A stretch of 64,000 nt of DNA from an uncultured Erysipelotrichaceae bacterium (GTDB lineage: Bacteria > Bacillota_I > Bacilli_A > RF39 > UBA660), in assembly GCA_902793375.1 (NCBI GenBank), contig CADBDE010000003.1, positions 30,039 through 94,038 of the forward strand, written 5' to 3'. Shown here one piece after another: positions 4,556 to 19,961 of the stretch (position 1 is its first letter; each line of letters begins with the position of its first letter). Made by a program: the position numbers and the translations under genes. The notes under the pieces are model-generated. The model saw nothing but the letters and a program-made list of their open reading frames with translations. It had not been told where the DNA came from and ran no database searches.

Positions 4556-5668
4556 TTATTTGATTCGTTTTCTTAAATATTCAACAAAACCTTCTAATAT
4601 TCTTTTATCATCATCTTTAATCCACTTAATATTATTTAAAATATTAACTGATTCATCATACATACTATTCATTAAAGTATTTGCATACTGGAAAGCACCA
4701 GATTTTTTAAAAATATCTCTTACTTTATCAATTTCTTCTTTTGATATATTCTCTTTCCCATAATACTTTAATAAATCATTTTTATATTCTTCTTTTTCAA
4801 CAGTATATGAGAATAAAATAGTTTGTTTATATTCTTTAATATCTGATCCTATTACTTTTCCCATATCATTATAAATGCCTAGTATATCATCTTGTATTTG
4901 GAAAGCAATACCTATTTTTTCACCAAATTCTTCTATTTCTTTTAATTTATCAGAATCTATTCCTCCAAGTATTAATCCAAGGTTAAGAGGCCCAACAATA
5001 GTGTAATATGCTGTTTTCAACTTATAAATAGTCATTATATTATCATATAAATTTGTATCTTTTAATTTGTATCTTCCATCAAAAGAAAGTTCTACATCAA
5101 TAAGTTCCCCTTCTATTGTTTTTAATACTATATCATTATAGTAATCTAGTATTTTTGCAAAGTTCTTATCATCTTTATAATATTTGATTATTTGTTTATT
5201 TGCTTCATAACAACCATAATCTCCCATACAAATAGCAATTGAATCTCCAGTTTTCTTAGCTAATTCATCATTATATTCTTTATTTAATGAATAATTATGA
5301 TAATGAATAGTTTCCTTTCCCCTTCTTAAATTATCTCCATCAATAATGTCATCATGAATTAAAACTGAAGTTTGAAATATTTCATAAGCAAGTGCAAGTG
5401 GATAACTATATTCTATATTCTTACATTGAGAAATCTTATAGCCAAGTGCAATTAAAAAACCTCTTACTAATTTCCCATCTCTATTTAAGTTACAAAATAA
5501 TCCCAAATTATCTTTTAAATATCCATTTTTATTTTTAATAACATTATCATTATATTTATTAATTACTTTTTCTAAATCACTTTTTATTTGTAAATAACTT
5601 TCATTGAACAATTCTAAATCACTTTTCATATATACCTCTTTATTTGAATATTCTTGGGACTCTATCAC
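4556..5668 (-). CDS. Polyprenyl diphosphate synthase (trans-isoprenyl diphosphate synthase family)
   Basis: First DDxxD motif in LIHDDIIDGDNLRRG and second DDxxD in FQIQDDILG. Confidence 0.85.
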   Translation of the reverse strand: MIESQEYSNKEVYMKSDLELFNESYLQIKSDLEKVINKYNDNVIKNKNGYLKDNLGLFCNLNRDGKLVRGFLIALGYKISQCKNIEYSYPLALAYEIFQTSVLIHDDIIDGDNLRRGKETIHYHNYSLNKEYNDELAKKTGDSIAICMGDYGCYEANKQIIKYYKDDKNFAKILDYYNDIVLKTIEGELIDVELSFDGRYKLKDTNLYDNIMTIYKLKTAYYTIVGPLNLGLILGGIDSDKLKEIEEFGEKIGIAFQIQDDILGIYNDMGKVIGSDIKEYKQTILFSYTVEKEEYKNDLLKYYGKENISKEEIDKVRDIFKKSGAFQYANTLMNSMYDESVNILNNIKWIKDDDKRILEGFVEYLRKRIK

Positions 5669-6716
5669 TAATTGTACTTAATATTTCATAATTAATTGTA
5701 TTACACTTTTCTGCAATATCATCTAAAGTAACATTTTCATTATCCCAAATATATACTTCATCCCCTACTTTAACATCTTTAACATCTGTTACATCAATCA
5801 TACAGCTATCCATACAAATAGTACCCAGTATTTTTACTTTTTGATTATGAATTACTACTTCTCCAATATTTGATAAAATCCTTCTTAATCCATCAGCATA
5901 TCCAATTGGAATAGTAGCAACCATCATTTTTTTGTTCGAAACAAACTTTTGGGAATAACTAATAGCTTCTCCTTCATCAAGTTCTTTTAGATATGTAATT
6001 TTTGTTTTTAATTTACATATTGGCTTAAAATCAAGTATGTCTTTGGCTCCAGGAAAAGATTCAAATCCATACATTATAATTCCTGCTCTAACTAAATTCG
6101 TACAATCATCTTTATATTTTAATAATCCATTAGATGCTTGTGAATGAACATATTTTATTGTACCAAATTCATAAATAATCTTTTTAACAGCTTTATTAAA
6201 TGTATCTAATTGTTTTAAAGTATATTTCTGATCATAATCTGCACTTGATAAATGAGTATATACTCCTTCAACAATAATGTTTTTATGCTTTTTTATAATC
6301 TTTATAAATTCATCAAGATTATTTAGTTTAATTCCAGTTCTATTCATACCTGTTTCAATTTCTAAATGAACTTTTACTTTTTCTTTCCATTTTATTAATT
6401 CATTTAGGAATTCAAATGAACTTATACCAATTATTAAATCATTTTCAATTATTTCATCTATTTCACTAATATCAGGTTGATTTAGAATTAAAACATCTTT
6501 TTGGTAACCAGTTTCTCTAATATCTATTCCTTCATCAACAATTGCTACTCCTACTATATTAAATTGATTTAATACATCAAGTTCTTTATTAATATAAGTA
6601 CCATATCCATTAGCTTTTATTACAGGGAGTATTTCTTTGTTTCCAACATACTTTTTAATTTTATTAATATTATTAATAAATTCATTTTTACTAACTTCCA
6701 TTACAGTAGCTCTCAT
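5640..6716 (-). CDS. alr: Alanine racemase
   Basis: PLP-lysine motif region VIKANGYGTY plus overall alanine racemase N-terminal barrel and C-terminal domain pattern (358 aa). Confidence 0.8.
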   Translation of the reverse strand: MRATVMEVSKNEFINNINKIKKYVGNKEILPVIKANGYGTYINKELDVLNQFNIVGVAIVDEGIDIRETGYQKDVLILNQPDISEIDEIIENDLIIGISSFEFLNELIKWKEKVKVHLEIETGMNRTGIKLNNLDEFIKIIKKHKNIIVEGVYTHLSSADYDQKYTLKQLDTFNKAVKKIIYEFGTIKYVHSQASNGLLKYKDDCTNLVRAGIIMYGFESFPGAKDILDFKPICKLKTKITYLKELDEGEAISYSQKFVSNKKMMVATIPIGYADGLRRILSNIGEVVIHNQKVKILGTICMDSCMIDVTDVKDVKVGDEVYIWDNENVTLDDIAEKCNTINYEILSTISDRVPRIFK

Positions 6717-6799
6717 AGTATCGCCTCTAATACTATTATATTATTAATAATAAAAAATAAAAAGAAAAACTCGAATTAAAAATCCGAGTTAATTTCATA

Positions 6800-6876
6800 T
6801 GGGGCGAAATAAGGGGATCGAACCCTTGCATACCGGAGCCACAATCCGGCGTGTTAACCACTTCACCAATTTCGCC
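6800..6876 (-). tRNA. tRNA-His (anticodon GTG), with encoded G-1 and CCA
   Basis: Reverse complement gGCGAAAT...ccggaTTGTGGCtccgg...GGTTCGATCCCC...ATTTCGC-C-CCA. It has a 7-bp acceptor stem, the extra 5-prime G typical of tRNA-His, anticodon loop TTGTGGC and a T-arm GGTTCGATCC. Confidence 0.85.
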
Positions 6877-7002
6877 AACATTTGTCTCAAAAGACTACTT
6901 TATTTTAGCAGTAATTAACTAAAATATCAAGTACTTTTTTTATCATGGCTATTCACCTATTCAATTATAATCACTTAACATATATTAGAACTAGGAGGAA
7001 TT

Positions 7003-7404
7003 ATGAATAATTATAATTATTTTGATCCATTAAATATTCCAAATAATGAAAATGCAAACAGTCTTTATGGAGCATATGAAGGATATTTAAAAGGAAATAT
7101 GTTTAGTAATCTATATGAAGAATATAAGGGTTATAAACCTGATGTATTAAGACCTGATAATGAAAAAGAACAAGAGTTATTTAACTTAAATCAAATAGGA
7201 TTTGCTTTACATGACATTAATCTATATTTAGATGTAAATCCAAACGACAATCAAATGCTTAGAATATTTGATAAATATAAGAATTTATATAATGAATTAT
7301 TTACACAATATGAAAATAAATATGGAGCAATTTGTGTAAATAATGTTAATAATAAAATTCCATTTGAATGGGAAAATTCAAGTTTCCCATGGGAGGGTAA
7401 ATAA
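7003..7404 (+). CDS. cotJB: Spore coat protein CotJB family (133 aa; the N-terminal extension may be a fused CotJA-like segment)
   Basis: IGFALHDINLYLDVNPNDNQMLRIFDKYKNLYNELFTQYENKYG matches the CotJB signature. It is translationally coupled (ATG overlapping the stop) to cotJC. Confidence 0.65.
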   Translation: MNNYNYFDPLNIPNNENANSLYGAYEGYLKGNMFSNLYEEYKGYKPDVLRPDNEKEQELFNLNQIGFALHDINLYLDVNPNDNQMLRIFDKYKNLYNELFTQYENKYGAICVNNVNNKIPFEWENSSFPWEGK

Positions 7405-7970
7405 TGTTTCAGTATCAAAAAAAATTACAATATCCAATTAATATAAAAAAGAAAGATTTAAAAATGGCAAAATACTTAGTAACTCAATATGGAGGATCTA
7501 ATGGTGAGCTTGGTGCTGCTTTAAGATATTTAAATCAAAGATATTCAATGCCTGATAATAGAGGAAAGGCACTTCTTACTGATATAGGAACAGAAGAATT
7601 AGCTCATGTTGAAATGATATCAACAATGATTTATCAATTAACAAAAGATGCAACGATTGAAGAGCTTGAAAGTGTTGGATTAGGTCCACATTATGCAGAA
7701 CATAGTAAAGGTCTATATCCAACTGATTCAAATGGAGTTCCATTTACAGTTGCATATTTTGCAACTACTGGAGATCCAATTGCAGATTTATACGAAGATA
7801 TGGCAGCAGAACAAAAAGCAAGAGCAGTATATGAAAATCTAATAAATATGACTGATGATAAAGATGTCATAAATCCATTAATATGGTTAAGACAAAGAGA
7901 AATAGTACATTTTAACATGTTTAAAGATTTAGTTAGTATATATGAAAAAGAAAAGAAAGTTAACTATTAA
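7404..7970 (+). CDS. cotJC: Spore coat protein CotJC (manganese-catalase-like ferritin fold)
   Basis: YQKKLQYPINIK...QYGGSNGELGAALRYLNQRYSMPD...TDIGTEELAHVEMI...DPIADLYEDMAAEQKARAVYE closely parallels B. subtilis CotJC. Confidence 0.85.
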   Translation: MFQYQKKLQYPINIKKKDLKMAKYLVTQYGGSNGELGAALRYLNQRYSMPDNRGKALLTDIGTEELAHVEMISTMIYQLTKDATIEELESVGLGPHYAEHSKGLYPTDSNGVPFTVAYFATTGDPIADLYEDMAAEQKARAVYENLINMTDDKDVINPLIWLRQREIVHFNMFKDLVSIYEKEKKVNY

Positions 7971-7978
7971 CTTTCTTT

Positions 7979-10933
7979 TTATTCATAAAAATCATCAAAT
8001 TTATTATCTTCCTCTGCTCCATTTTCAAGATTTAAATCAAATTGAGGTTTATTTTCTTCTGTTTGAACTCCCATATATTTATTTGTTTCCTCTTCTTTAA
8101 CTTTTCCTTGATTCAAATCTGAAAAATTAACAAAGTTTCCTGATTTCATATCTTCATAATAATCTTTATTATTTGTTGGACTAGTTATATTTCCATTAGT
8201 TGTAATATTATTCTCTTCTTTATTTTTTTGAACATCATCCAATATATTTTTTTGAAAGAACGATGAGTTATTTGTCATATTTTGTTGGTTATTATTACTT
8301 TGATTATCTATAAAAGTCCAATTTTTATTTGAATTCATTCCCATATTTGAATTATTCTGAATTCCAAAGCCGGTAGGATTATTATTAATTCCAAATCCTG
8401 CTGGATTATTATTTATTCCAAATCCCGTTGGATTAAATTGTTGATTTTGATTATTACCTTCATTACTTAAGGCAGCTGCAGAATTAGTAATGGCAGAAAG
8501 ATTATTCAATTTTTCAAAAGTTGGAAATTCATTAACAATCTCTCCATTTTTAATGCTCATATTATCAATAATCATATCATTATCTATAATACCAGTTGAA
8601 TTATTATCATTATTTTGTTTATCTTGATCTACACTATACATTGGTGCTCCAAATAATGTTTCTGAATTTTCATCTTTAGAACTTTCTCCATACATTGGTG
8701 CTCCAAACAATGTTTCACCACCATTATTAGAAGAACTATTATTAAAGAATGATCCAGTAGGTTGATTATTAGTAGGTATTTCACTATTCATTGGTCCACT
8801 AAACGATTGATTATTCATTTGTTGGTTCATTGGTCCTTGCATTGGTCCTCCATACATTTGATCATTCATTGGTGGGTTCATTGGTCCTTGCATTGGTCCT
8901 CCATACATTTGGTCATTCATTGGTGGGTTCATTGGTCCTTGCATTGGTCCTCCAAACATCTGGTCATTCATTGGTGGGTTCATTGGACCTTGCATTGCTC
9001 CTCCAAACATCTGGTCATTCATTGGTGGGTTCATTGGTCCTTGCATTGCTCCTCCATACATTTGGTCATTCATTGGCATGTTAATTGGTCCTTGCATTGG
9101 TCCTCCGAACACTTGGTCATTCATTGGCATGTTCATTGGTCCTTGCATTGGTCCTCCATACATTTGATCATTCATTGGCATGTTCATTGGTCCTTGCATT
9201 GGTCCTCCGAACATTTGATCATTCATTGGCATGTTCATTGGTCCTTGCATTTGATTGTTCATATTATAATTTCCACCAGTATTTGAATTTGCAACAGAAC
9301 TTCCACTCATAAGCATATCAATTCTATTTCTATCTTCATTATTATTTGCATTATTTTCAGGATGAAAATAATTCTGATACTTATCAAAATTTTGATTGCT
9401 TATATCTTGTCTTTCTGGTTTAAAATCATTATTCCACATACGCTTTCCCTCATTCTTTTTGTTTTTTTGATTTCCTCTATATTTTTCAGGCACATATTCT
9501 ATATTTTGTTCTTCTATTTCAGCATTACTTCCAATTGGTCTTCCAAGTAAAAAGCCATCATCTACTCCAGGTCTTATTTCATCAGTAACGACATAATCTA
9601 TAACTTGTTTTTGTTTTGGAGCTTCGTTTTTTAATACTCCAACATTTGATGATAATATCATATCATCTAGTTTACTTGAATCAACTGTTTTATTAATTTT
9701 TTCTTTCAATCCGGTAGAAACAGCAGCTGATCCTACTTTTGCATATTTTGTTTTTCCAGTTGATGTAATTATATTATTGATTGGTTTACTATTTCTAAGT
9801 TCAACCTTATCAATCATATCTGGATCACTTTCGAATAAAGACATTTTGTTTTGGAATTCTTCTTCCTCTTTTCTTTTCTTCATCCGATTATTATATACTT
9901 CATTATTCTTTATTTTTAATTCTTCGTGGCTTTCTTCATCGCCATCATCTTCTTCATTGTTTTCTAACTCACTTCTTGTTAAAGTTCCATCTTTTCGCCA
10001 CTCTTCAATTGGTTTCTCGCCCTTTTCCTCAAGCATTATATCATTAAACATCTTATCAAAATTAGGTAGTTCTTTTTTTATAACATCTGGATAAATGTTT
10101 TTAGAATTTTCTATTGCTTTTCTAACATCAAATATATCCATATATGGTCTATTATCATATACTGTATATGAAAAAGCTTGTTTTAAAAGTGTTAAACATA
10201 CATCAGGATACCTTGATCCTAGTGAAAATATTCTTTTATATTCACTAGTTATGTCTACGATGAAACTCATAATTCTTTCTTGAATAAATGATGTATACTT
10301 CATCTTCCTTCCTGTTTGTTTTTCAAACTTTGGAAGAGTTCCCATCATTATTGCTATTGTTTCATCTCTTGAAGGTTCTGGAACTTCAATTTTCTGAAAT
10401 CTTCTTGTAAAAGCTTTATCTCTTAAAATATATCTTTCATATTCTTCTGTCGTAGTAGCACCAATTACTTTTATGCTTCCTCTACCCAACCCCTCTTTAA
10501 AAATATTGGCAAAGTCCAATGATGAAGTTTCTGTTGATCCAATCAACATATGAATTTCATCTATAAATAATATTATTTTTTCTTTAGTTTTTAATTCATC
10601 AATCATTTTTTGAACTTTGCTTTCTCCACTTGGCATTGTTCCAAGTAAAGAAGCTGTTTTAATATTTAAAATTGTATATCCCTGTAAGGCATCAGGTACA
10701 TTGTTTTGTTGAATTCTATATGCTAATCCTTCAACAATAGCAGTTTTACCTATACCTGGTTTTCCAATTAAAATTGCAGATTTTTCAGGGGTTAATAGGA
10801 CTAAAATTAATTCTTTTATTTGCTGATCTCGCCCAATGGCAGGATCAGTAACATATTCATCTTTAGTGACATCTGTACCATAACGTTCAAGTACACTAAA
10901 ATTGGCTTCGAATTCCATTGTTTCCTTATCCAT
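7979..10933 (-). CDS. AAA+ ATPase with a single ClpA/ClpB D1-like module, followed by a long low-complexity C-terminal region (tandem 17-aa PMNMPMNDQMYGG repeats, FG and N/Q-rich tail)
   Basis: N-terminus DPAIGRDQQIKELILVLLTPEKSAILIGKPGIGKTAIVEGLAYRI...ILFIDEIHMLIG...RRFQKIEVPEPS matches the Clp/Hsp100 D1 Walker A/B and sensor regions. No Clp N-domain and no D2. About nine repeats of GGPMQGPMNMPMNDQMY, then NPTGFGINNNPAGFGINNNPTGFGIQNN. Confidence 0.7.
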   Translation of the reverse strand: MDKETMEFEANFSVLERYGTDVTKDEYVTDPAIGRDQQIKELILVLLTPEKSAILIGKPGIGKTAIVEGLAYRIQQNNVPDALQGYTILNIKTASLLGTMPSGESKVQKMIDELKTKEKIILFIDEIHMLIGSTETSSLDFANIFKEGLGRGSIKVIGATTTEEYERYILRDKAFTRRFQKIEVPEPSRDETIAIMMGTLPKFEKQTGRKMKYTSFIQERIMSFIVDITSEYKRIFSLGSRYPDVCLTLLKQAFSYTVYDNRPYMDIFDVRKAIENSKNIYPDVIKKELPNFDKMFNDIMLEEKGEKPIEEWRKDGTLTRSELENNEEDDGDEESHEELKIKNNEVYNNRMKKRKEEEEFQNKMSLFESDPDMIDKVELRNSKPINNIITSTGKTKYAKVGSAAVSTGLKEKINKTVDSSKLDDMILSSNVGVLKNEAPKQKQVIDYVVTDEIRPGVDDGFLLGRPIGSNAEIEEQNIEYVPEKYRGNQKNKKNEGKRMWNNDFKPERQDISNQNFDKYQNYFHPENNANNNEDRNRIDMLMSGSSVANSNTGGNYNMNNQMQGPMNMPMNDQMFGGPMQGPMNMPMNDQMYGGPMQGPMNMPMNDQVFGGPMQGPINMPMNDQMYGGAMQGPMNPPMNDQMFGGAMQGPMNPPMNDQMFGGPMQGPMNPPMNDQMYGGPMQGPMNPPMNDQMYGGPMQGPMNQQMNNQSFSGPMNSEIPTNNQPTGSFFNNSSSNNGGETLFGAPMYGESSKDENSETLFGAPMYSVDQDKQNNDNNSTGIIDNDMIIDNMSIKNGEIVNEFPTFEKLNNLSAITNSAAALSNEGNNQNQQFNPTGFGINNNPAGFGINNNPTGFGIQNNSNMGMNSNKNWTFIDNQSNNNQQNMTNNSSFFQKNILDDVQKNKEENNITTNGNITSPTNNKDYYEDMKSGNFVNFSDLNQGKVKEEETNKYMGVQTEENKPQFDLNLENGAEEDNKFDDFYE
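8812..9250. repeat. In-frame tandem DNA repeat, 51-bp period, about 8-9 copies, encoding the PMNMPMNDQMYGG protein repeats of the AAA+ gene
   Basis: Unit ttgcattggtcctccatacatttggtcattcattggtgggttcattggtcc is repeated head-to-tail with few substitutions (visible 8841-9250). Confidence 0.85.
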
Positions 10934-11354
10934 TGAACAAGCCTCCTATCATAGAACATTATAACACACGATTATGTATTTAATAAAGATAAAATAAAGA
11001 AAAAAAGAAACTTTTTTGTAGAAGATATCATATATCTAAATCTTCATCTTTACGATGAGCTAAAAATTTTGATGGTACTAAGGATTCTTTAATTGATGAA
11101 TCGCATAAATCTCTCTCAAAACACCCTAACGCTCAAACTGAATAAGAATTAAAATGGATTAAAGACATCTCTAATATTACTCTCCCTGAATTATATTGAA
11201 AAGTTGAAAGAAGTCATAGAAATGATCAATAAAGATTATATTCTTATCTAAAGTTCTATTCCTATGATAATTTATTACTTCAAATGAAAGTTTATCTTAA
11301 ACGTTCAAATAACATCATACTTGGTTGAATTTCTACTATTCAAAAAAAATCTAT

Positions 11355-11790: not shown

Positions 11791-13923
11791 TTAATTATTT
11801 TTAACTATTTTATGACATCTACGATTAATTGCTAAAAGTGTTCCAAAACTGATAAACAGTATAAAGCAATACTTTTTAATTGAATCATCAGTTGCTGGGT
11901 TATCAAGTACTTCATCTATTTTCCAGTTAACAGCTATTGTTACATTTTCAAACGGCATAGTAAATTTATTAAGCATTATAGATATTGTTCCATCTTCATT
12001 TTTTATTAAATCGTTTTCTTCAAAAGCTATTTCTTCTCCACTAGATGTTCTTACAATTATCTCCTTCAATTTTACTCCATTTTTAGAAGTAAGTTTAAAA
12101 GTTATTTCTTCTCCTCCTTTTGCATTATCTACAACTTCTATTTCCCCATTTTCATCTATTTCAGTATCTACTTTATAACTCAATTCACTAATTGGTATTG
12201 TTATTACAGGACGAACTCCACAGCCTAATTTAGTTTTATAATCATTAAGTATACTACCACATACAGATCTACTAGTTGTATCAAATCCTGCTCCACATAT
12301 GCCACCAGAACTATCTACAAATACAACTGAATTAACTCCTATTCCATTATTTGATCTATCATATCCTGCTCTTATCCAGTATGTTGTATTATATATAAAA
12401 CTATGTTTTTTCGCTAATAAGTCATTTAAAAAACCAAACTCATAATGTGGGGGTTGAATTGTTGGAGTTGCGCTACTCCACTCTTGATAAGGCAATGTTT
12501 TATTATTTAGCTTAGTTATTTCATTTATTTCATCTAATGTCAATAAATCAACGTCTGTAACATCAACACCATAAAAGTTTAAAGTAGTTTTGTATGATTT
12601 CAATTTTGTTAATATAGATGTCTCTGAATTATTATTTCCTAAAGTCAAATCATAAAAATATCCATCATATTTATCACCACTTGCTTCATCAACATAAAAA
12701 TCTACAAATGTATTAATATGTCCATTATAATATTGACGAGATTCTATATATATATCTCCTACTTGTGGATATAAATAATTGCCATCTTCATCCCAATGAG
12801 CACTTTTTGCTTCTTCATTTTGAGTTATTAAATCTGTTGAGATTTCTTGAGCTATAAAACAATAATTTGGAATATTATAATATCCTTCTCTTCTTGATTC
12901 AGCACCCAACGAAGTAGCTAAGTCTTGACAATATTCTTCATCAGTTCTATTATCACTAGAGTCTTTTTCTATTTTAATTTTTGATATTGTAGTACCTGTA
13001 TATAGATTATATTTTGATATCATTCTTACTTTTTCACTATCTTTTGATAATAAATAAAAATGTTCTTCACCACAGGCAATTTCATCACCTATTTCTTTTC
13101 CACTACCACTAATAACTTGACATTGCCATTTATCATGCTTTCCAAAATTTACTTCAACATATAATGATCCCATTGGTCTACTAGTAGACAAAGAAACAAA
13201 CTCATTTTCCAATGAATGAATATCATATTTTTCATATAAAATGTTTCCTTGATAGTCTTTTACAACAATTGAATCAACATAATTAAATTTGTCTGGAACT
13301 GCATAAAAATATACACTTTCATTTAATACATTAGTTAGTTCACTAACAGTTGTTGTTCCATTACCATTTATAGTTACATTAGTATCAAATTTAACACGGG
13401 TATAAAAGTTTCTATCCATTGAATCAACTATACTACAAGAAGAATTTCGACAACAACTTACAGTGCTTTTATCAGTAAATCTAAATTCATTTTCATTTGT
13501 TTTAAAGTAAAAATAATTATCAATAGATCCTTTATTATTATCATAATAATAAGAATAAAGAATACCTCCAAAGTTTGAATTAAGTGGAACCCAATCATGC
13601 GCTGACATGTCTATAAAAAAATTACTAGTTTTATTTTCATATATTACTTTATTACCAGTTATTTTTATAACTTCATTTTGAAAAGTATATCCTTCTACAT
13701 TTACTAAATATAAAAGTCCAGCTAGTTTTTCTGGAGTATTAATTAAGTAGTCATAATTTCCATAAAATGAAGAAACATCCCCCTTAACATTATTATAAGT
13801 ACTTGGATCAAACCAACTTGTATCTCTATAAGATGGATCATCTAACCAAGTATCTGCTTTCACCATTGTTGGTATAAAGAATAATGTTAATAATGTGACA
13901 ATTAAAAAAATTGCTTTTTTCAT
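11791..13923 (-). CDS. Secreted cell-surface protein (710 aa) with signal peptide, variable central domains and a conserved C-terminal module ending in an NPATD motif, hydrophobic segment and basic tail (putative cell-wall sorting/anchor signal)
   Basis: N-terminus MKKAIFLIVTLLTLFFIPTMVKA. C-terminus ...NWKIDEVLDNPATDDSIKKYCFILFISFGTLLAINRRCHKIVKNN. Last 130 aa are about 70% identical to the 14286..15998 product. Internal region CQVISGSGKEIGDEIACGEEHFY is shared with the paralog. Confidence 0.6.
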   Translation of the reverse strand: MKKAIFLIVTLLTLFFIPTMVKADTWLDDPSYRDTSWFDPSTYNNVKGDVSSFYGNYDYLINTPEKLAGLLYLVNVEGYTFQNEVIKITGNKVIYENKTSNFFIDMSAHDWVPLNSNFGGILYSYYYDNNKGSIDNYFYFKTNENEFRFTDKSTVSCCRNSSCSIVDSMDRNFYTRVKFDTNVTINGNGTTTVSELTNVLNESVYFYAVPDKFNYVDSIVVKDYQGNILYEKYDIHSLENEFVSLSTSRPMGSLYVEVNFGKHDKWQCQVISGSGKEIGDEIACGEEHFYLLSKDSEKVRMISKYNLYTGTTISKIKIEKDSSDNRTDEEYCQDLATSLGAESRREGYYNIPNYCFIAQEISTDLITQNEEAKSAHWDEDGNYLYPQVGDIYIESRQYYNGHINTFVDFYVDEASGDKYDGYFYDLTLGNNNSETSILTKLKSYKTTLNFYGVDVTDVDLLTLDEINEITKLNNKTLPYQEWSSATPTIQPPHYEFGFLNDLLAKKHSFIYNTTYWIRAGYDRSNNGIGVNSVVFVDSSGGICGAGFDTTSRSVCGSILNDYKTKLGCGVRPVITIPISELSYKVDTEIDENGEIEVVDNAKGGEEITFKLTSKNGVKLKEIIVRTSSGEEIAFEENDLIKNEDGTISIMLNKFTMPFENVTIAVNWKIDEVLDNPATDDSIKKYCFILFISFGTLLAINRRCHKIVKNN

Positions 13924-14043
13924 ATTACACCCTCACTTTATTATAATTCTATTATATATTATAATTATTAAAAACAACGTAACGAAATTATATTTTTAAT
14001 GTAAATGAGTGTAAAGAAAAACGAACTAAAATAGTTCGTTTTG

Positions 14044-14244
14044 TTATCTACATTTTACATTATCTTGAGATTCATAAGCAAAATTTCTTAATGCTTCTTG
14101 TTTTTCTATTTCTAGAAGCATTTTTATTTCTTCACTTGTTAATCCTTTTGCTTTCAATGCATCAATCATCTCATCAAGTGGTAATTGTCTAATTACCTCT
14201 CTTATAGATAATTCTTTATAATTATCAACCATAAAACCCTCCAT
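14044..14244 (-). CDS. Small conserved protein (66 aa), paralog of 11536..11736
   Basis: MEGFMVDNYKELSIREVIRQLPLDEMIDALKAKGLTSEEIKMLLEIEKQEALRNFAYESQDNVKCR. Confidence 0.55.
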   Translation of the reverse strand: MEGFMVDNYKELSIREVIRQLPLDEMIDALKAKGLTSEEIKMLLEIEKQEALRNFAYESQDNVKCR

Positions 14245-14285
14245 AAATATAACTGCACATAATACTATAAATAATCAAGCACTTA

Positions 14286-15998
14286 TTAATTATTTTTTGC
14301 TTTTTTATGGCATTTACGATTAATTGCTAAAAGTGTTCCATAACTGATAAATAAAATAAAGCAGTACTTTGCAATTTCATCATCAGTTGCTGGGTTATCA
14401 AGTACTTCATCTATTTTCCAGTTAGCTGTTATTGTTACATTTTCAAAAGGCATAACAAATTTATTATTCATTATTGTTACTGTTCCATCTTCGTTTTCAA
14501 TTAAATCTCCTTCAGTAAACTCTATTGTCGTTCCATTCTCGGTTGTTATTGTGATAGTAGATAATTTATATCCTTTTTTAGGAGACACTTTAAAACTTAT
14601 TGTTTCATTTCCTGCTGAATTATCTACTACTTCTATTTCACCATTGTTATCTGTTTCTGCAGCGATATTATATAAGATTTCATTTTTTGATAATGTAATT
14701 AAAGGTCTTAGTCCTGCTCCAACATCAACTGAACAGTACCCAGCATTACATATATCTCCCCAACTATCTACAAAGAAAGCATTACTTCCAGAATCTCTCG
14801 TTCTAGTCCAATATGTTGTAGCCCATATCCATGAATAATCATCTGGTATATGATCTTTTAAACTACCAATAATATTAAAATTAGCTCCAAAATGGTTTCC
14901 TTGTTGCCAATTTGATGTCCAATCATCAAGTGGTAATCTATTATTCGTTGTATTATATGTGAAATTATCTAAATCTTTTACAGTAATTAGATTGATATCA
15001 CTTATTCCAACATTTAAAGATTCTAAATATCTTTTATAAAACAATAATGAATTTGTCATTTTTTGATCATAACTATAATCTAATATAACATCTCGATAAT
15101 TATTATCGTTATATGATGAATTACTATCAAATGATCCCTGTCCTAACGGATTAGCGGTAAATGATCCATATTCAGGTAATTCAGCTACTCCTCTTACTGC
15201 TCCATGAGCTCCAATTGCTAACTCACTTTGTTTAACCATTTTTGATTCATTCATTTTTTTATAATAATATCCATAATAATAAATAACGGAATACTTAGTA
15301 TCTTTAAATTCAGAATAATGGATACTATATCCTTCTGCTATTTTTTGTTGATATTCTTCTGAACTTTGTATTTCATTAATATTTAACGAATGGTTTGAAT
15401 CTTCTGCCATGTGTATTTCTGTTGTATAAGAGTCATTTTTATAAAGTATAATATAAGTTGCATCATAGTAATACTCACCGTTAATTACTTCTCTAGTACT
15501 ATATCCTAATGTAATACTAATAGTACTTTTAGGAATAAAGCCTTCATTTTGAATAGCATCAATTACTTCAGGTAAATATAGTATTTCTCTATATGTTCTT
15601 GGTGTCCCATCAAGTTGAATTTTTTTATATGTAATCTCCATTTCTTTATAAAATGTATAATCCGTCTCGTTTTTTTGAAAATCATAAGCCGCTTTTTGTT
15701 CTGAATATCCAAGATTTAATAATTCTTGGGCTTTTTCATTATTACTATACCCAGGATAGCGTCCAGGAATAACGACATGATCAAATTGATTACCATCAAA
15801 TATATTATATTTTGCTAATAATCTTAGATTAGAATCATCTTTGTCAAATACGTAAAAGTGTTCCCCTCCACAATCAATTTCACTACCTAAATCATTTCCG
15901 TTTCCTGACACTACTCTACAGTGGCCTTCAGCATCTACAACTTTTGGTATAAAGAATAATGTTAATAATGTGACAATTAAAAAAAATACTTTTTTCAT
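14286..15998 (-). CDS. Secreted cell-surface protein (570 aa), paralog of 11791..13923, with the same C-terminal NPATD/hydrophobic/basic anchor
   Basis: N-terminus MKKVFFLIVTLLTLFFIPKVVDA. C-terminus ...NWKIDEVLDNPATDDEIAKYCFILFISYGTLLAINRKCHKKAKNN. DNA around the stop/start junction (14270-14340) duplicates 11788-11850. Confidence 0.6.
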   Translation of the reverse strand: MKKVFFLIVTLLTLFFIPKVVDAEGHCRVVSGNGNDLGSEIDCGGEHFYVFDKDDSNLRLLAKYNIFDGNQFDHVVIPGRYPGYSNNEKAQELLNLGYSEQKAAYDFQKNETDYTFYKEMEITYKKIQLDGTPRTYREILYLPEVIDAIQNEGFIPKSTISITLGYSTREVINGEYYYDATYIILYKNDSYTTEIHMAEDSNHSLNINEIQSSEEYQQKIAEGYSIHYSEFKDTKYSVIYYYGYYYKKMNESKMVKQSELAIGAHGAVRGVAELPEYGSFTANPLGQGSFDSNSSYNDNNYRDVILDYSYDQKMTNSLLFYKRYLESLNVGISDINLITVKDLDNFTYNTTNNRLPLDDWTSNWQQGNHFGANFNIIGSLKDHIPDDYSWIWATTYWTRTRDSGSNAFFVDSWGDICNAGYCSVDVGAGLRPLITLSKNEILYNIAAETDNNGEIEVVDNSAGNETISFKVSPKKGYKLSTITITTENGTTIEFTEGDLIENEDGTVTIMNNKFVMPFENVTITANWKIDEVLDNPATDDEIAKYCFILFISYGTLLAINRKCHKKAKNN

Positions 15999-16244
15999 AT
16001 CATACTCCTTAGATTTTATACTTTTATTATAAATGATAAATTTGAAAAACCATTAAATTAAAATAAATTTAAAATGTAAACCTGTAAAGTAAAAAAAGAG
16101 CTATAAGCTCTTTTTAATACAATATGGTGCGATACAAGAGCCTATTTTGAACACTTATATCCAAAAGAATAACTAATAAATATCAGTTCTATATATAATA
16201 GACCATATTTTTGAGTAATATCAACGATTTTTAGGACGTTTTTT

Positions 16245-16292
16245 TTGATTTTTTCGAAAAAATGTAGTATAGTATTAACCGTTTCGAAAAGG
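16245..16292 (+). promoter_or_regulatory. Sigma-A-type promoter for orf 16303..17700 with perfect 10-bp palindrome TTTTCGAAAA in the spacer and a second TTTCGAAAA copy in the leader (candidate operator)
   Basis: -35 TTGATT (16245-16250), 17-bp spacer, -10 TATAGT (16268-16273). Palindrome ttttcgaaaa at 16251-16260 and tttcgaaaa at 16282-16290. RBS aaaagggg before the ATG at 16303. Confidence 0.35.
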
Positions 16293-16302
16293 GGAAATAC
16301 TT

Positions 16303-17700
16303 ATGAAAATACAAATAAAAGATATAGAACTTATTTTTTCCAAAAATCAACAACAATTTATAGATGAGATTAAAACGATAATTCTAAACAACTATGAATT
16401 AATACTTGGTTGTTTAGGCGAAAACAAAACAATTGATATTTCTCAAGATGAATCTAATTTTAATGACACATTTTATTATATCGTTAAAGGAACGTATAAT
16501 GATGCTAATATTAGACGGTTACTTTATGATAAATTTTTTTTATTAAAACTTTATATTGAAGTTTTAATTAGAAGAAAAAATTATTCTAATATTTCAATAG
16601 ATCATAATCCGAATATAACTGATGAATTGTTATCTTCATTGATAGCATATAAATATTTTGAAACAAATGGATCTTTTGATGATTTTGTAGAATACCTAAA
16701 AGTTAGAAATACGGAAGAAACAATATTTGAATGGTTAAAAATTAATCAAAGATGGGAGACATATAATTACTTACTAAACATAGCATTAAATGGTTTAAAA
16801 GAAGAGGACGATGATTTTTTAACGCATGTAACTTATATAATAAGTTATTTTTCAAAAAAGGCCTTAGAATGCAACAAAAAGGAAAAAGCACCAAAAGTAG
16901 ATTATCCCAATATTTCTGATATAGAATTTGACCGTTTATTTTATGAATTTTTAAATTTTATTAATGCTCCAGATAGTTGGATAGATATTTATAATAGTCT
17001 TAAAGAGCAAAAATTATTAATTAGGGAACATGGGGTAACCGAATGTTTTCAAGATGAAGATGGAATATATAAGATTAAATTAGAAAATAGTAATGATTTA
17101 TTTGTTTTTTGTAATTTTGTTCATGAATTTATTCATTACATTTCAATGAAAGATGATTTTCTAAAAGCAGAAAAATTAATTGAAGAATTTCCTAGTATAT
17201 TTTTTGAAAAAATAGCTGCCGAATTTTTAACAATTAAAGGTTATCCAAATGTAATTATTGATATAATTGATGATGATAGAGATAGCAACAATTATTATAT
17301 AGTTACTTTTCCTTTATTTTTAAGAATATATGCCGATTTAATATATTATTTTAAAAATGGTAAAATAGAAAAAGAAAATATGATGGCTACATTGCAATCC
17401 TTTTTTGATGATGAAAGTAAACCATCTCGAACTGATTTAGAAAAACGTGCAGATGACTATTGCGATTTTCTAATAGATTTTTTTATTGAAGAAGGACTAC
17501 TATTTGGTTATCAATATTTATTTGATACTTATTTAGCAGAACAAGTATTAAATAAAAGAGAGCAAGATAATACAATAATTAAAAAAATGATTAATGTAAC
17601 TAATAATTTAGGAATGACAAGTGTTAAAGACATTCTAACTTTATTTGGTATTGAAAACACACTACAAGAAGAAGCAGCTAAAAAGTTAATAAAAAAATAA
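16303..17700 (+). CDS. Hypothetical protein with HExxH zinc-metallopeptidase-like motif
   Basis: 465 aa; the only recognizable motif is FVHEFIHYISM (HExxH) near residue 275. No signal peptide or TM helix. Confidence 0.45.
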   Translation: MKIQIKDIELIFSKNQQQFIDEIKTIILNNYELILGCLGENKTIDISQDESNFNDTFYYIVKGTYNDANIRRLLYDKFFLLKLYIEVLIRRKNYSNISIDHNPNITDELLSSLIAYKYFETNGSFDDFVEYLKVRNTEETIFEWLKINQRWETYNYLLNIALNGLKEEDDDFLTHVTYIISYFSKKALECNKKEKAPKVDYPNISDIEFDRLFYEFLNFINAPDSWIDIYNSLKEQKLLIREHGVTECFQDEDGIYKIKLENSNDLFVFCNFVHEFIHYISMKDDFLKAEKLIEEFPSIFFEKIAAEFLTIKGYPNVIIDIIDDDRDSNNYYIVTFPLFLRIYADLIYYFKNGKIEKENMMATLQSFFDDESKPSRTDLEKRADDYCDFLIDFFIEEGLLFGYQYLFDTYLAEQVLNKREQDNTIIKKMINVTNNLGMTSVKDILTLFGIENTLQEEAAKKLIKK

Positions 17701-17714
17701 AGGTAAAATTGAGT

Positions 17715-18905
17715 TTATCTCTCAAAGTCATCTTTTCCTTTGCTTAAATCCAACTCTTCAATATTATCATCATCTAAAACATTATCATCATACATGTCAT
17801 TAATAACATCAATATATTTATCATCTTTATCATACCAACTATGAAGTTTATCGTGTAAGAAGGATATTAATTTACTAAATTTATCCTTCCAATAATCTAT
17901 TGTATCTTTTAAATCTTGTATTTTAGATTTTAAAAATGATATTTCATTATTCTTTTCTTTAATTGTATCATTTAAAGTCTTAACTCTTAAATTAAGTACT
18001 TCATTGTTTTCAGTAAGAGTTTTAATCTTATTATTTTTATCTTTTAATTGTTCGTGAGCATTTACTAGTGTATTAGATAGAGTTTGTATTTTATCATATT
18101 CTTTATTAGTGTTATCTACTTGATTGATAAAGTCGATAAAAGTTTTTTTATCTTCTTTTGATAAAATATAATTATCTTTATTAAATCTAGATACTTTTAA
18201 TTTATCAATTTTATCTTTTATATCTTTGGAATTTTGTTTTAACTCCGAAGATTTTTTATTTGCTTGTTTTAGATTTTCGGTATTCTTTTCAATTTGCTTT
18301 TTCATTTCAATATAGTTATCCATATCAGATACATGAATATCTCTATTTCTACCTTTTTGTTTTTGTTTTAAAGTAGAGTCTAAACTATATACTTGATTAA
18401 ATTCTTCAATACATAAAGTTCTCATTTTATCTTGCAATCTTATTAAAGATTCTTTAGTAAATACATCAGATTTACCAACTTGTTTTTCCATACCATTTTT
18501 ATTTTTATATTTAATTGGAACTCCAACAATATGTAAATGTGGACTTGTTTCATCATAATGAATAATTGCACTAGCTACTTTAAAATTTGGAACAAGCATT
18601 TCTAAATCATCAACTTGTTTTTTATATACTTCTGACATTTTCTTTTTAAAGTTTTCATCTTTAGTATCCCAATATTCTTTATCTCCAAGTTCAAGTATTA
18701 TTTCACAAGCAAGATCTTTTTTCTCGTTATTAGATACATTTTCAAAATAATTATCTATCATACGACTAGGTCTAGATTGTTTAGAATTATATTCTAATCT
18801 TGCTTCTTCAAATTCACTTAAATAAAGTTCTTTTACATCATCAAGTGGAGAAGAAGTACCTCTTATTATTTCAATTAGTTCTTGATTATTAACATATTTT
18901 CTTTT
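17715..18905 (-). pseudogene. mob: MobV/Pre-family plasmid mobilization relaxase, 5-prime truncated. Annotated ORF is 17715..18761; the reading frame stays open upstream to a TGA at 18906-18908 with no start codon.
   Basis: HYDETSPHLHIVGVP matches the Mob_Pre HxDE...PHxH metal-binding motif. KDLACEIILELGDKEYW aligns to the KDAVL...TSDKDFF segment of pMV158 MobM. The N-terminal roughly 45 aa, including the catalytic region, are absent. In-frame upstream codons ...YVNNQELIEIIRGTSSPLDDVKELYLSEFEEARLEYNSKQSRPSR precede the annotated Met and stop at the repeat boundary. Confidence 0.65.
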
Positions 18906-18909
18906 TCAT

Positions 18910-18991
18910 ACAACAAAAAATCAATTCCATTTCTAGAATTGATATTTATTAGTAAATTGAACCTAAGTTCAACCAGATTCTTTAATGGTGC
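18910..18991. repeat. 82-bp direct repeat, copy 1, abutting the truncated mob gene
   Basis: acaacaaaaaatcaattccatttctagaattgatatttattagtaaattgaacctaagttcaaccagattctttaatggtgc is identical to 19769..19850 except one T/A difference. Confidence 0.85.
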
Positions 18992-19100
18992 GAGTGTCGT
19001 AGATATCTACAACTTTTCACAAGTACGGATGATATAAATATCACTCATTAAATACATTCTACCAAATAATAGAAAAGGTAGCAATATGTTTCATGCTACT

Positions 19101-19679
19101 TTATCTTTTTTTTGGAGAATCACTTTTTTGTTCTTTATGTGATTCTTCATAAAACCAATTTTTATCATAAGAATTATAACTATTTATATCTATCATTACA
19201 TTTTCACCAATGATTGGATTTAAAGACCATCCTTCTCCAAATGTGTGTTTACATCCATCTTTAAAATTTGACGAAAATTCTTGTTGTAATAATCTATATA
19301 ATTTTCTCAAATCTTCATTGCTTACCATTTTAATAGTATCACTTGTTATTCTTGTACCTTGTTCACATCTACCATAGTCTATTAAATTACCATTTCGTAA
19401 CATATATAAAACATATAATTCATTAGTATTTTCCACACATTGTTTAATATAGTTAATAAATTTTGTACATGCTTCATTAAATATATCTAAGTCACTACTA
19501 AATATGCTATTAGTTTCATCAGCTACATCAGGAAACATAGATTTAATCATATCAGCTGCTTTCTTATAATTTTCAAAACATTCATTTAGAAAAGGAACAA
19601 CAGGATCATTTTTATCTATACCTTTTTCATCGATTTCTTGTACTTTTTTAAATGTATCTTCCTTATTCATAGTCATCAC
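19101..19679 (-). CDS. Hypothetical protein (192 aa) inside the repeat-flanked cassette
   Basis: ORF with good codon usage and several Cys (CFENY, CTKF, CVENT, GRCEQG, CKHTF). No recognizable motif. Confidence 0.45.
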   Translation of the reverse strand: MMTMNKEDTFKKVQEIDEKGIDKNDPVVPFLNECFENYKKAADMIKSMFPDVADETNSIFSSDLDIFNEACTKFINYIKQCVENTNELYVLYMLRNGNLIDYGRCEQGTRITSDTIKMVSNEDLRKLYRLLQQEFSSNFKDGCKHTFGEGWSLNPIIGENVMIDINSYNSYDKNWFYEESHKEQKSDSPKKR

Positions 19680-19768
19680 TCATCCTTTAGATGTATTCAT
19701 TATAACACAGTTTTAAGATATTTTAACATTTTTTACATTTCTATTTCAAAATCATCCCTTTCTTTTAC

Positions 19769-19850
19769 ACAACAAAAAATCAATTCCATTTCTAGAATTG
19801 ATATTTATTAGTAAATTGAACCAAAGTTCAACCAGATTCTTTAATGGTGC
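19769..19850. repeat. 82-bp direct repeat, copy 2. Its last 6 nt are the 3-prime end (GCACCA) of tRNA-Leu.
   Basis: 81/82 identical to 18910..18991. The copies are 859 bp apart. Confidence 0.85.
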
Positions 19851-19930
19851 CTGAGGTGGGACTTGAACCCACACGGTGTCGCCACCATCGGATTTTGAGT
19901 CCGACACGTCTACCATTCCATCACTCAGGC
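19845..19930 (-). tRNA. tRNA-Leu (anticodon CAA) with long variable arm and encoded CCA
   Basis: Reverse complement gcctgag...tcggaCTCAAAAtccga...long variable arm tggtggcgacaccgtgt...GGTTCAAGTCCC...ctcaggc-a-cca. Anticodon loop is CTCAAAA. Confidence 0.85.
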
Positions 19931-19961
19931 GCAAAAATATTATAACATAAGATAATTAGTA

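Follow-up and report, generated by a model that had tools for sequence, protein, structure and literature searches.

Two probable decayed mobilizable elements in tandem behind a tRNA-Leu gene of an uncultured Erysipelotrichaceae bacterium

We analysed a 64-kb stretch of DNA (64,000 nucleotides, hereafter the window) from contig CADBDE010000003.1 of an uncultured Erysipelotrichaceae bacterium. Reading down the minus strand from a tRNA-Leu(CAA) gene, it carries one copy of a direct repeat (R2), a single small gene (ORF192), a second copy of the repeat (R1), a 5′-truncated gene for a MobV-type relaxase (mob), a convergent gene for a protein with an HExxH motif and, finally, an intrinsic terminator. 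A preliminary description of the locus had proposed a single decayed mobilizable element or small plasmid next to a tRNA gene. Integrated and decayed mobilizable DNA is indeed present; our results point to two elements in tandem and not to one. We propose, with a probability of about 0.85, that positions 16125-19850 form a 3.7-kb tandem array, inserted exactly after the CCA end of the tRNA gene, of two decayed integrative and mobilizable elements (IMEs) from a single family: element A, which runs from 19850 to 18986, and element B, which runs from 18991 to 16125.

The 82-nt core of the repeat at 18910-18991 recurs at 19769-19850 in direct orientation with one mismatch (98.8% identity), and 100 shuffles produced 0 such matches. 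With its flanks the repeat, referred to as R, spans 88 nt (R1, 18904-18991; R2, 19763-19850), the copies being spaced 859 nt apart. The tRNA gene was called by both ARAGORN and Rfam (56.4 bits), and the second copy shares its last 6 nt, GCACCA. The repeat and its run into the tRNA 3′ end were thus confirmed as first described. R1 and R2 differ by a single loop base (TTAGG in R1, TTTGG in R2), both variants being present in other loci, and R2 has 0 mismatches to the family consensus. The same locus order, with identical proteins, was found in 7 contigs of up to 111 kb from at least 4 samples. Since it recurs across several samples, the arrangement is a real, stable structure and neither an assembly accident nor a frameshift.

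R matches no known RNA, the tRNA being the sole match of an Rfam scan at E<=1. A scan of viral contigs for R returned nothing, and blastn of 16100-19950 against 72,556 plasmids had no other matches than the tRNA and a mob motif of 60 nt; origin from a known plasmid or phage is therefore unsupported. The promoter scan called no sigma-70-like site within R, and a hand-made TTGAAC-17-ATAAAT candidate failed its criteria.

Metagenome contigs were scanned for GCACCA followed by the first 19 nt of R, which gave 37 loci (related loci are cited here by L numbers). In 26 of these, R stands directly after an exact tRNA 3′ end. The genes concerned are seven, for tRNA-Leu (CAA, TAG, GAG, TAA), tRNA-Thr (CGT, GGT) and tRNA-Gly (CCC), and their acceptor and T arms are quite different. 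At most of the other loci, R is preceded by non-tRNA sequence ending in GCACCA, which is the right end of the previous element of a tandem array. Behind R, AAAAGAAAGGGATGATTTAATG and a 90-aa open reading frame (ORF), orf90, follow in most loci. Because it follows the CCA ends of seven different tRNA genes elsewhere, R is an element-borne left end and not chromosomal sequence, a target duplication or a scar.

The preliminary description had suggested a search for an empty site in relatives, and one was found in an 84% relative, L089. There TATGAAATAAAAAAGAACTTAATAGTTCTTTTTTTT, homologous to the window from 16124 down to 16090 (TATTGTATTAAAAAGAGCTTATAGCTCTTTTTTT), directly adjoins the CCA end of tRNA-Leu(CAA). 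L089 also shares the order of the genes from SpoVA to ScpAB, and its flanking FAD protein is 84% identical. Since the terminator directly follows the tRNA gene at this unoccupied site, the 3.7-kb array lies inserted between the tRNA gene of the window and its own terminator. Closer relatives yielded no empty site, the L087 contig (89%) stopping at the CCA of the tRNA gene and L088 and L090 having no tRNA gene at that place. Two contigs of the same strain (L082, L086) break inside the truncated mob, and the break of L087 at the CCA is likewise typical of repeats. As these breaks fall at family sequences, the elements must be multi-copy in those communities, and short-read bins under-represent such arrays.

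Complete units of the family were seen in two loci, L072 and L058. Behind the GCACCA that closes the tRNA gene come the 82-nt R, orf90, a gene for a large serine recombinase and a 240-nt spacer, which contains an inverted repeat resembling an origin of transfer (oriT). Then follow mobV and the cargo, which is often encoded on the other strand, and the unit closes with a conserved right end some 70 nt long and a further GCACCA. Intact members measure about 5.5 kb (5,548 bp core to core in L058, where the terminal hexamer is GTGCCA), and their mobV products 444-448 aa; Pfam Mob_Pre matches the 448-aa form from profile position 17. The recombinases range from 609 to 621 aa. That of L058 (609 aa) matches the Pfam domains Resolvase (E=1e-34), Recombinase (2e-18) and Zn_ribbon_recom (3e-6), and the family recombinase shares no more than 36% identity with any recombinase of the plasmid and phage collections. 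Between R and the right end of intact relatives, no tyrosine recombinase was found. Flanking sequences switch on either side of GCACCA, which would place the crossover inside this hexamer or at its edge.

Element A occupies the 0.86 kb between the repeat copies, which we read as a gutted separate element and not as a cassette of a single one. Positions 18986-19765 (mob tail, a 191-aa ORF and right end) are 96.7% identical by blastn to L041, where the matching stretch comes after an intact mob of 460 aa with only about 60% protein identity to the truncated mob of the window. The type 1 right end is conserved up to GCACCA in L041, L042 and L043; beyond the hexamer, R follows in the window and in L042, and L041 and L043 each have a flank of their own. 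Since the flanks differ beyond it, GCACCA is the boundary of element A. Internal junctions of the same kind, with right end, GCACCA and R, were found in L042, L057, L069 and L073.

Element A lacks all that intact members carry between the R leader and the last 11 mob codons. Its deletion junction (window 19749-19765) is a 17-nt stretch that is near-identical between the R leader (AAAGAAAGGGATGATTT) and the mob 3′ end (AAAGAAAAAGATGATTT, encoding KEKDDF), and these two direct repeats bracket the whole orf90-recombinase-mob module. Because junctions of this type recur with different mob tails and cargo (L061, L071, L046/L080), they suggest recurrent loss of the mobility module driven by short homology. 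ORF192 is the sole ORF between the repeats and has its own promoter-like site. It counts 192 aa from a GTG; a start at the ATG at 19676 (191 aa) is more likely. The preliminary description was right about a single gene there and wrong to call it an orphan, since the ORF192 family comprises 32 homologues (sequence clusters); no domain match and no convincing fold match were obtained for it.

Element B begins with R1, whose shortened leader runs into mob. The mob frame is open over 396 codons from 18905 (TGA at 18906-18908) to the stop at 17715, with no in-frame ATG, GTG or TTG before 18761. Pfam Mob_Pre (PF01076) matches its product with E=6.5e-13 and 49.4 bits (cut-off 25.5) over profile positions 32-168 of 196 only, and the NCBIfam MobV equivalog scores 35.1 bits, below its cut-off of 100. 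The metal-binding motif HxDE...PHxH is kept as IHYDETSPHLH. Full-length homologues (86-94% identical) have 448 aa, of which the window lacks the first 52, including KHNYR, a region that we assume probably corresponds to that of His22, the catalytic histidine of MobM; a PDB sequence search with full-length Mob found no match, and the correspondence stays an assumption. The 156 nt of 5′ sequence are wholly absent and not frameshifted. The relaxase gene abutting the first repeat copy, its motif and its frame open to the repeat boundary are thus as the preliminary description had them, and no intact start lies in another frame; the loss of the N-terminus and start codon also stands, at 52 residues in place of the roughly 45 first estimated. 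Judged from these sequence features, the truncated mob cannot encode a working relaxase, and the annotated 348-aa 'Mob_Pre' gene is a pseudogene fragment.

Alignment with L058 delimits what element B has lost. Its sequence matches L058 2598-2689 (97.8%), jumps to 5434-6621 (89.9%) and resumes in the right end at 8069-8151 (88%), so that about 2.74 kb are missing, namely orf90, the recombinase gene, the oriT-like region and 53 mob codons. The deletion junction shows only the microhomology AGAAA. The type 2 right end at 16125-16189 has 0 mismatches to the pattern from other loci and recurs, unchanged or nearly so, in at least 14 unrelated loci. This conserved end (16125-16203) lies beyond the HExxH gene, which bears out the earlier suggestion that the gene is cargo of the same element.

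Table 1. Features of the tRNA-Leu(CAA) locus and their reading as a putative tandem array (window positions).
Feature	Position	Strand	Basis
tRNA-Leu(CAA), putative integration target; last 6 nt, GCACCA (19845-19850), as attL core	19845..19930	minus	ARAGORN, Rfam
R2, left end of element A: two hairpins, the second with a T-run, then leader/ribosome-binding region of the lost orf90	19749..19844	minus	family consensus, folds
mob remnant of A: last 11 codons (33 nt) and stop, L041-type (…KERDDFEIEM*), in-frame fusion with the R2 leader	19733..19765	minus	alignment to L041-L043
ORF192, cargo of A	19101..19679	minus	
Right end of A, type 1, ending ...GTTGTAGATATCTACGACACTC right before the core	18992..19100	minus	conserved in L041, L042, L043
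Internal GCACCA, attP-like junction of right end A and left end B	18986..18991	minus	
R1, left end of element B, shortened leader running into mob codon 53/54, TTAGG variant	18904..18985	minus	
5′-truncated MobV relaxase gene, 396 codons	17715..18905	minus	89.9% nt identity to L058 mob 5434-6621
HExxH protein, 465 aa, cargo of B, convergent with mob	16303..17700	plus	between mob and right end B
Right end of B, type 2: ...GAACTGATATTTATTAGTTATTCTTTTGGATATAAGTGTTCAAAATAGGCTCTTGTATC	16131..16203	minus	conserved across loci
GCACCA, attR core, array end	16125..16130	minus	
Native intrinsic terminator of tRNA-Leu, displaced 3.7 kb	16093..16115	minus	terminator scan; homology to L089

Because their R loop variants, mob lineages and right-end types all differ, A and B appear as two independent elements, which argues against duplication of one element in situ. 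The features expected of an IME are divided between the window and its relatives. Integration bounds at a specific target are present in the form of R after CCA, right ends before GCACCA and the empty site of L089. An integrase of the family's own is encoded in L058 and L072; in the window, tblastn with the family recombinase and orf90 found nothing, so the search for an integrase further left, which had been proposed earlier, came out negative over all 64 kb. The oriT-like inverted repeat of the relatives is also absent from the 64-kb window, and a working relaxase is lacking. Both units keep R, a right end and GCACCA and have neither recombinase nor intact relaxase, as in cis-mobilizable elements (CIMEs). 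The intact relatives do not show the make-up of a tRNA island with a tyrosine integrase. Since recombinase, oriT and working relaxase are absent, the array cannot move on its own today. Loss of this kind is common: only 2 of 38 R copies are followed by a complete orf90-recombinase-mob module, and behind many copies fragments of orf90 or of the recombinase gene are fused to internal mob positions. Decay is the rule in this family, and the locus is ordinary genomic debris.

These observations are consistent with the following course of events. By recombining attP with attB, the serine recombinase would integrate the element in its circular form, and the crossover would fall inside the terminal GCACCA. 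Accretion at the tRNA-side junction, or homologous recombination between two R copies, would have brought in the second element. Both elements would then have been gutted by short-homology recombination, A via AAAGAAAGGGATGATTT and AAAGAAAAAGATGATTT, B via AGAAA. With attL, attR and the junction between the elements all retained, the array could still be excised by a cognate recombinase acting in trans, as expected of a CIME, and excision of the whole array would join the CCA of tRNA-Leu to TATTGTATTAAAAAGAGC. Accretion followed by decay to CIMEs is the established model for IMEs (PMC5704250).

The structure of R fits an element end that serves several purposes. Folded individually, all R variants form two hairpins at the same positions despite changed stem sequence, a layout common to the Leu/Thr/Gly type, the tRNA-Met type and at least 5 other variants inside arrays. 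A covariation count was dropped, MAFFT having misaligned the first hairpin. Hairpin 2 is flanked by an A-tract and a T-run and resembles an intrinsic terminator; it may replace the displaced terminator of the tRNA gene and shield the recombinase operon from read-through. The first ~20 nt of R (…GAATCTG.T[CT]GAAC) may be the recombinase-binding arm of attP, and the last 20 nt the leader of orf90. On the two sides of GCACCA, GTTCAA (right end 2) and TTGAAC (R) stand at roughly equal distances, and the GTTCRA of the tRNA T-loop is ~4 nt closer. Such spacing fits the attP/attB geometry of large serine recombinases and is a lead only. The earlier idea that the repeat is a vestigial att or oriT-associated sequence is upheld for att, R being the left end of the element, and rejected for oriT; in intact relatives the oriT-like inverted repeat lies between recombinase and mob, in the part deleted from the window. 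In intact elements (L057, L058, L068, L069, L077), an ATG inside hairpin 2 is in frame with orf90 (MELIFCCVKERDDL-MVNIIK..., 104 aa). In the window, the ATG of this hairpin opens an 18-codon mini-ORF (19733-19789 minus; MELIFCCVKERDDFEIEM) running into the mob remnant.

Other members of the family show how the elements combine. Loci L035-L040, found via the Mob protein, have the same gene order after tRNA-Met and a diverged homologous left end, R′; the right end of these elements was sought and could not be defined. R′ (around 7290-7400 in L035), after tRNA-Met(CAT), has the two-hairpin layout of R. The mob of L035-L040 is 92% identical to the truncated mob of the window, yet the window copy is joined to a Leu/Thr/Gly-type R, from which it follows that left ends and mob genes reassort. 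Arrays of at least 3 units behind one tRNA gene occur in L079, L080, L046 and L057. Since these arrays mix strongly diverged left ends and at least 3 right-end types, elements with different att arms must share one landing site. L036 is another rearranged member, with two different Mob_Pre genes (433 and 448 aa; 6760-11347) close by and no recombinase gene between them.

Could a simpler history account for the locus? The single decayed element or plasmid first proposed, if taken together with a repeat that is duplicated chromosomal sequence from downstream of the tRNA gene flanking a one-gene cassette, draws on the facts that the repeat starts within the last bases of the tRNA gene and encloses a single ORF. 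It is very unlikely, given that R lies behind seven other tRNA genes in other organisms, that the native downstream sequence begins at 16124 and runs downward from there, and that the 'cassette' has its own mob remnant and right end, of a lineage and type unlike those of element B. We give no more credit to a tandem duplication in situ by unequal crossing-over within one element. The 98.8% identity and direct orientation of the copies would suit it, but the segments behind them are not duplicates: the mob remnants belong to lineages only ~60% identical at the protein level, the right ends are of two types, and the sole difference between R1 and R2 matches two variants circulating elsewhere. 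An artefact, whether assembly chimera or sequencing frameshift, would be in keeping with the repeat-rich region and with contigs of the same strain and a relative that break inside the truncated mob or at the CCA (L082, L086, L087); recurrence of the arrangement in 7 contigs and the outright absence of the mob 5′ sequence make it the most far-fetched of the explanations considered.

The remaining alternatives accept the array and differ in how it was built. The second element may instead have entered as a circle by RecA-type homologous recombination, its 88-bp R pairing with the R already in place, a route that we regard as possible and still the less probable one. Its product would be identical to that seen, 88 bp of near-identity would suffice, and serine integrases normally recombine only attP x attB. 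That arrays also join elements with strongly different R variants favours the site-specific route, although the sequence at the locus does not distinguish the two. It is improbable that an enzyme other than the serine recombinase, such as a tyrosine recombinase of the host or of a helper element, or the relaxase, integrates the family at tRNA ends. Apart from orf90, mob and cargo, the intact elements encode nothing but the serine recombinase, and its gene lies at the element end beside the att site, the usual position of an integrase. What speaks for such an enzyme is precedent: tRNA 3′ ends are classical targets of tyrosine integrases. Described tRNA-targeting IMEs use such integrases and are flanked by repeats of a 3′ part of the tRNA gene (PMC5704250). 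Described serine-integrase IMEs, for their part, insert inside genes (traG, maff2, snf2, rumA) or have low specificity like Tn4451 (PMC5704250, PMC5357655).

Several points weigh against our proposal. The role of the serine recombinase is deduced from its being the sole recombinase encoded by intact relatives; products of excision or of integration were not observed. Accretion next to an occupied site is not what serine integrases are expected to do, and the second element may in reality have arrived through homologous recombination across R. An unoccupied site was not found in the same species, the nearest being that of the 84% relative. The L041 contig ends 340 nt upstream of mob and so does not show the left end of that element type, of which A is the decayed form.

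The HExxH protein belongs to a family of 172 cluster representatives in which H274, E275, H278 and E295 are invariant. Its sole match outside the family is a weak one to M3B oligoendopeptidase F (E=0.025), and it is probably an uncharacterised gluzincin-type metallopeptidase. It shows no similarity to the HExxH-bearing cargo of L058. L001, the closest species-level genome (71%-related), encodes a 511-aa HExxH homologue (13862-15397; 33% identity) ~5.5 kb downstream of the same tRNA-Leu(CAA) gene, which is not followed by R there. The nearby homologue fits the view that the tRNA-Leu site is a long-standing landing pad. Just outside the array, the window carries two paralogous genes for large surface-type proteins of 710 and 570 aa (11791-13923 and 14286-15998 minus), with a near-identical signal peptide and C-terminal segment (…DNPATDD..KYCFILFIS.GTLLAINR.CHK) and a 62-66-aa ORF between them.

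For this genome, the array amounts to 3.7 kb of dead mobile DNA behind tRNA-Leu, with ORF192 and the HExxH protein as imported cargo. A family of IMEs with a serine recombinase and a MobV relaxase aimed at tRNA CCA ends was not described in the literature searched, and it looks undescribed. It is an evenly balanced proposal that this is a new MobV IME lineage whose serine recombinase inserts after the CCA ends of many tRNA genes (Leu, Thr and Gly, with a sister lineage at Met), maybe by reading GTTCRA in the T-arm, that the element brings a replacement terminator, and that a 17-nt homology repeatedly deletes the mobility module to leave cargo-only units. If true, a CCA-targeting serine recombinase that spares tRNAs would inform how large serine recombinases choose their targets, and would be a possible integration tool with a target present in many bacteria. 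Homology-guided loss of the mobility module would likewise offer a concrete route to cargo-only islands at tRNA genes. The family as a whole would be a modestly novel IME variant.

MobM of pMV158 is the prototype MOBV relaxase. The truncated mob product shares with it the HxDE...PHxH motif and a long coiled-coil C-terminus, and differs in that Mob_Pre positions 1-31 are missing and no oriT adjoins the gene. Among known arrays, the IME/CIME accretion arrays that Firmicutes carry at the 3′ ends of tRNA and other genes (PMC5704250) are alike in their non-disruptive insertion at tRNA 3′ ends, tandem build-up and decay that keeps attL and attR. Unlike the Firmicutes tRNA IMEs, the family described here has a large serine recombinase only, shares 6 nt with the tRNA gene, and has as its repeat the element's own 82-nt left end. 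In gene content, the intact relatives resemble Tn4451/Tn4453 (TnpX and the MobV-type TnpZ; PMC5704250), which are also small and also combine one large serine recombinase with one Mob_Pre/MobV relaxase and an upstream oriT-like site. Compared by description, Tn4451 has low target specificity and a 2-bp crossover, whereas the family of the window is found only after a tRNA CCA or another member. In its logic, the nearest analogue is provided by the ssrA islands of Dehalococcoides (PMC3146451), in which a serine-recombinase module at the tmRNA 3′ end forms repeat-delimited tandem arrays with CIME-like members. These islands differ in having a CcrB-like recombinase with a second, small recombinase and no MobV relaxase, and in using a 20-bp ssrA repeat, a T-loop crossover and one target gene, where the family at the tRNA-Leu locus uses many tRNA genes.

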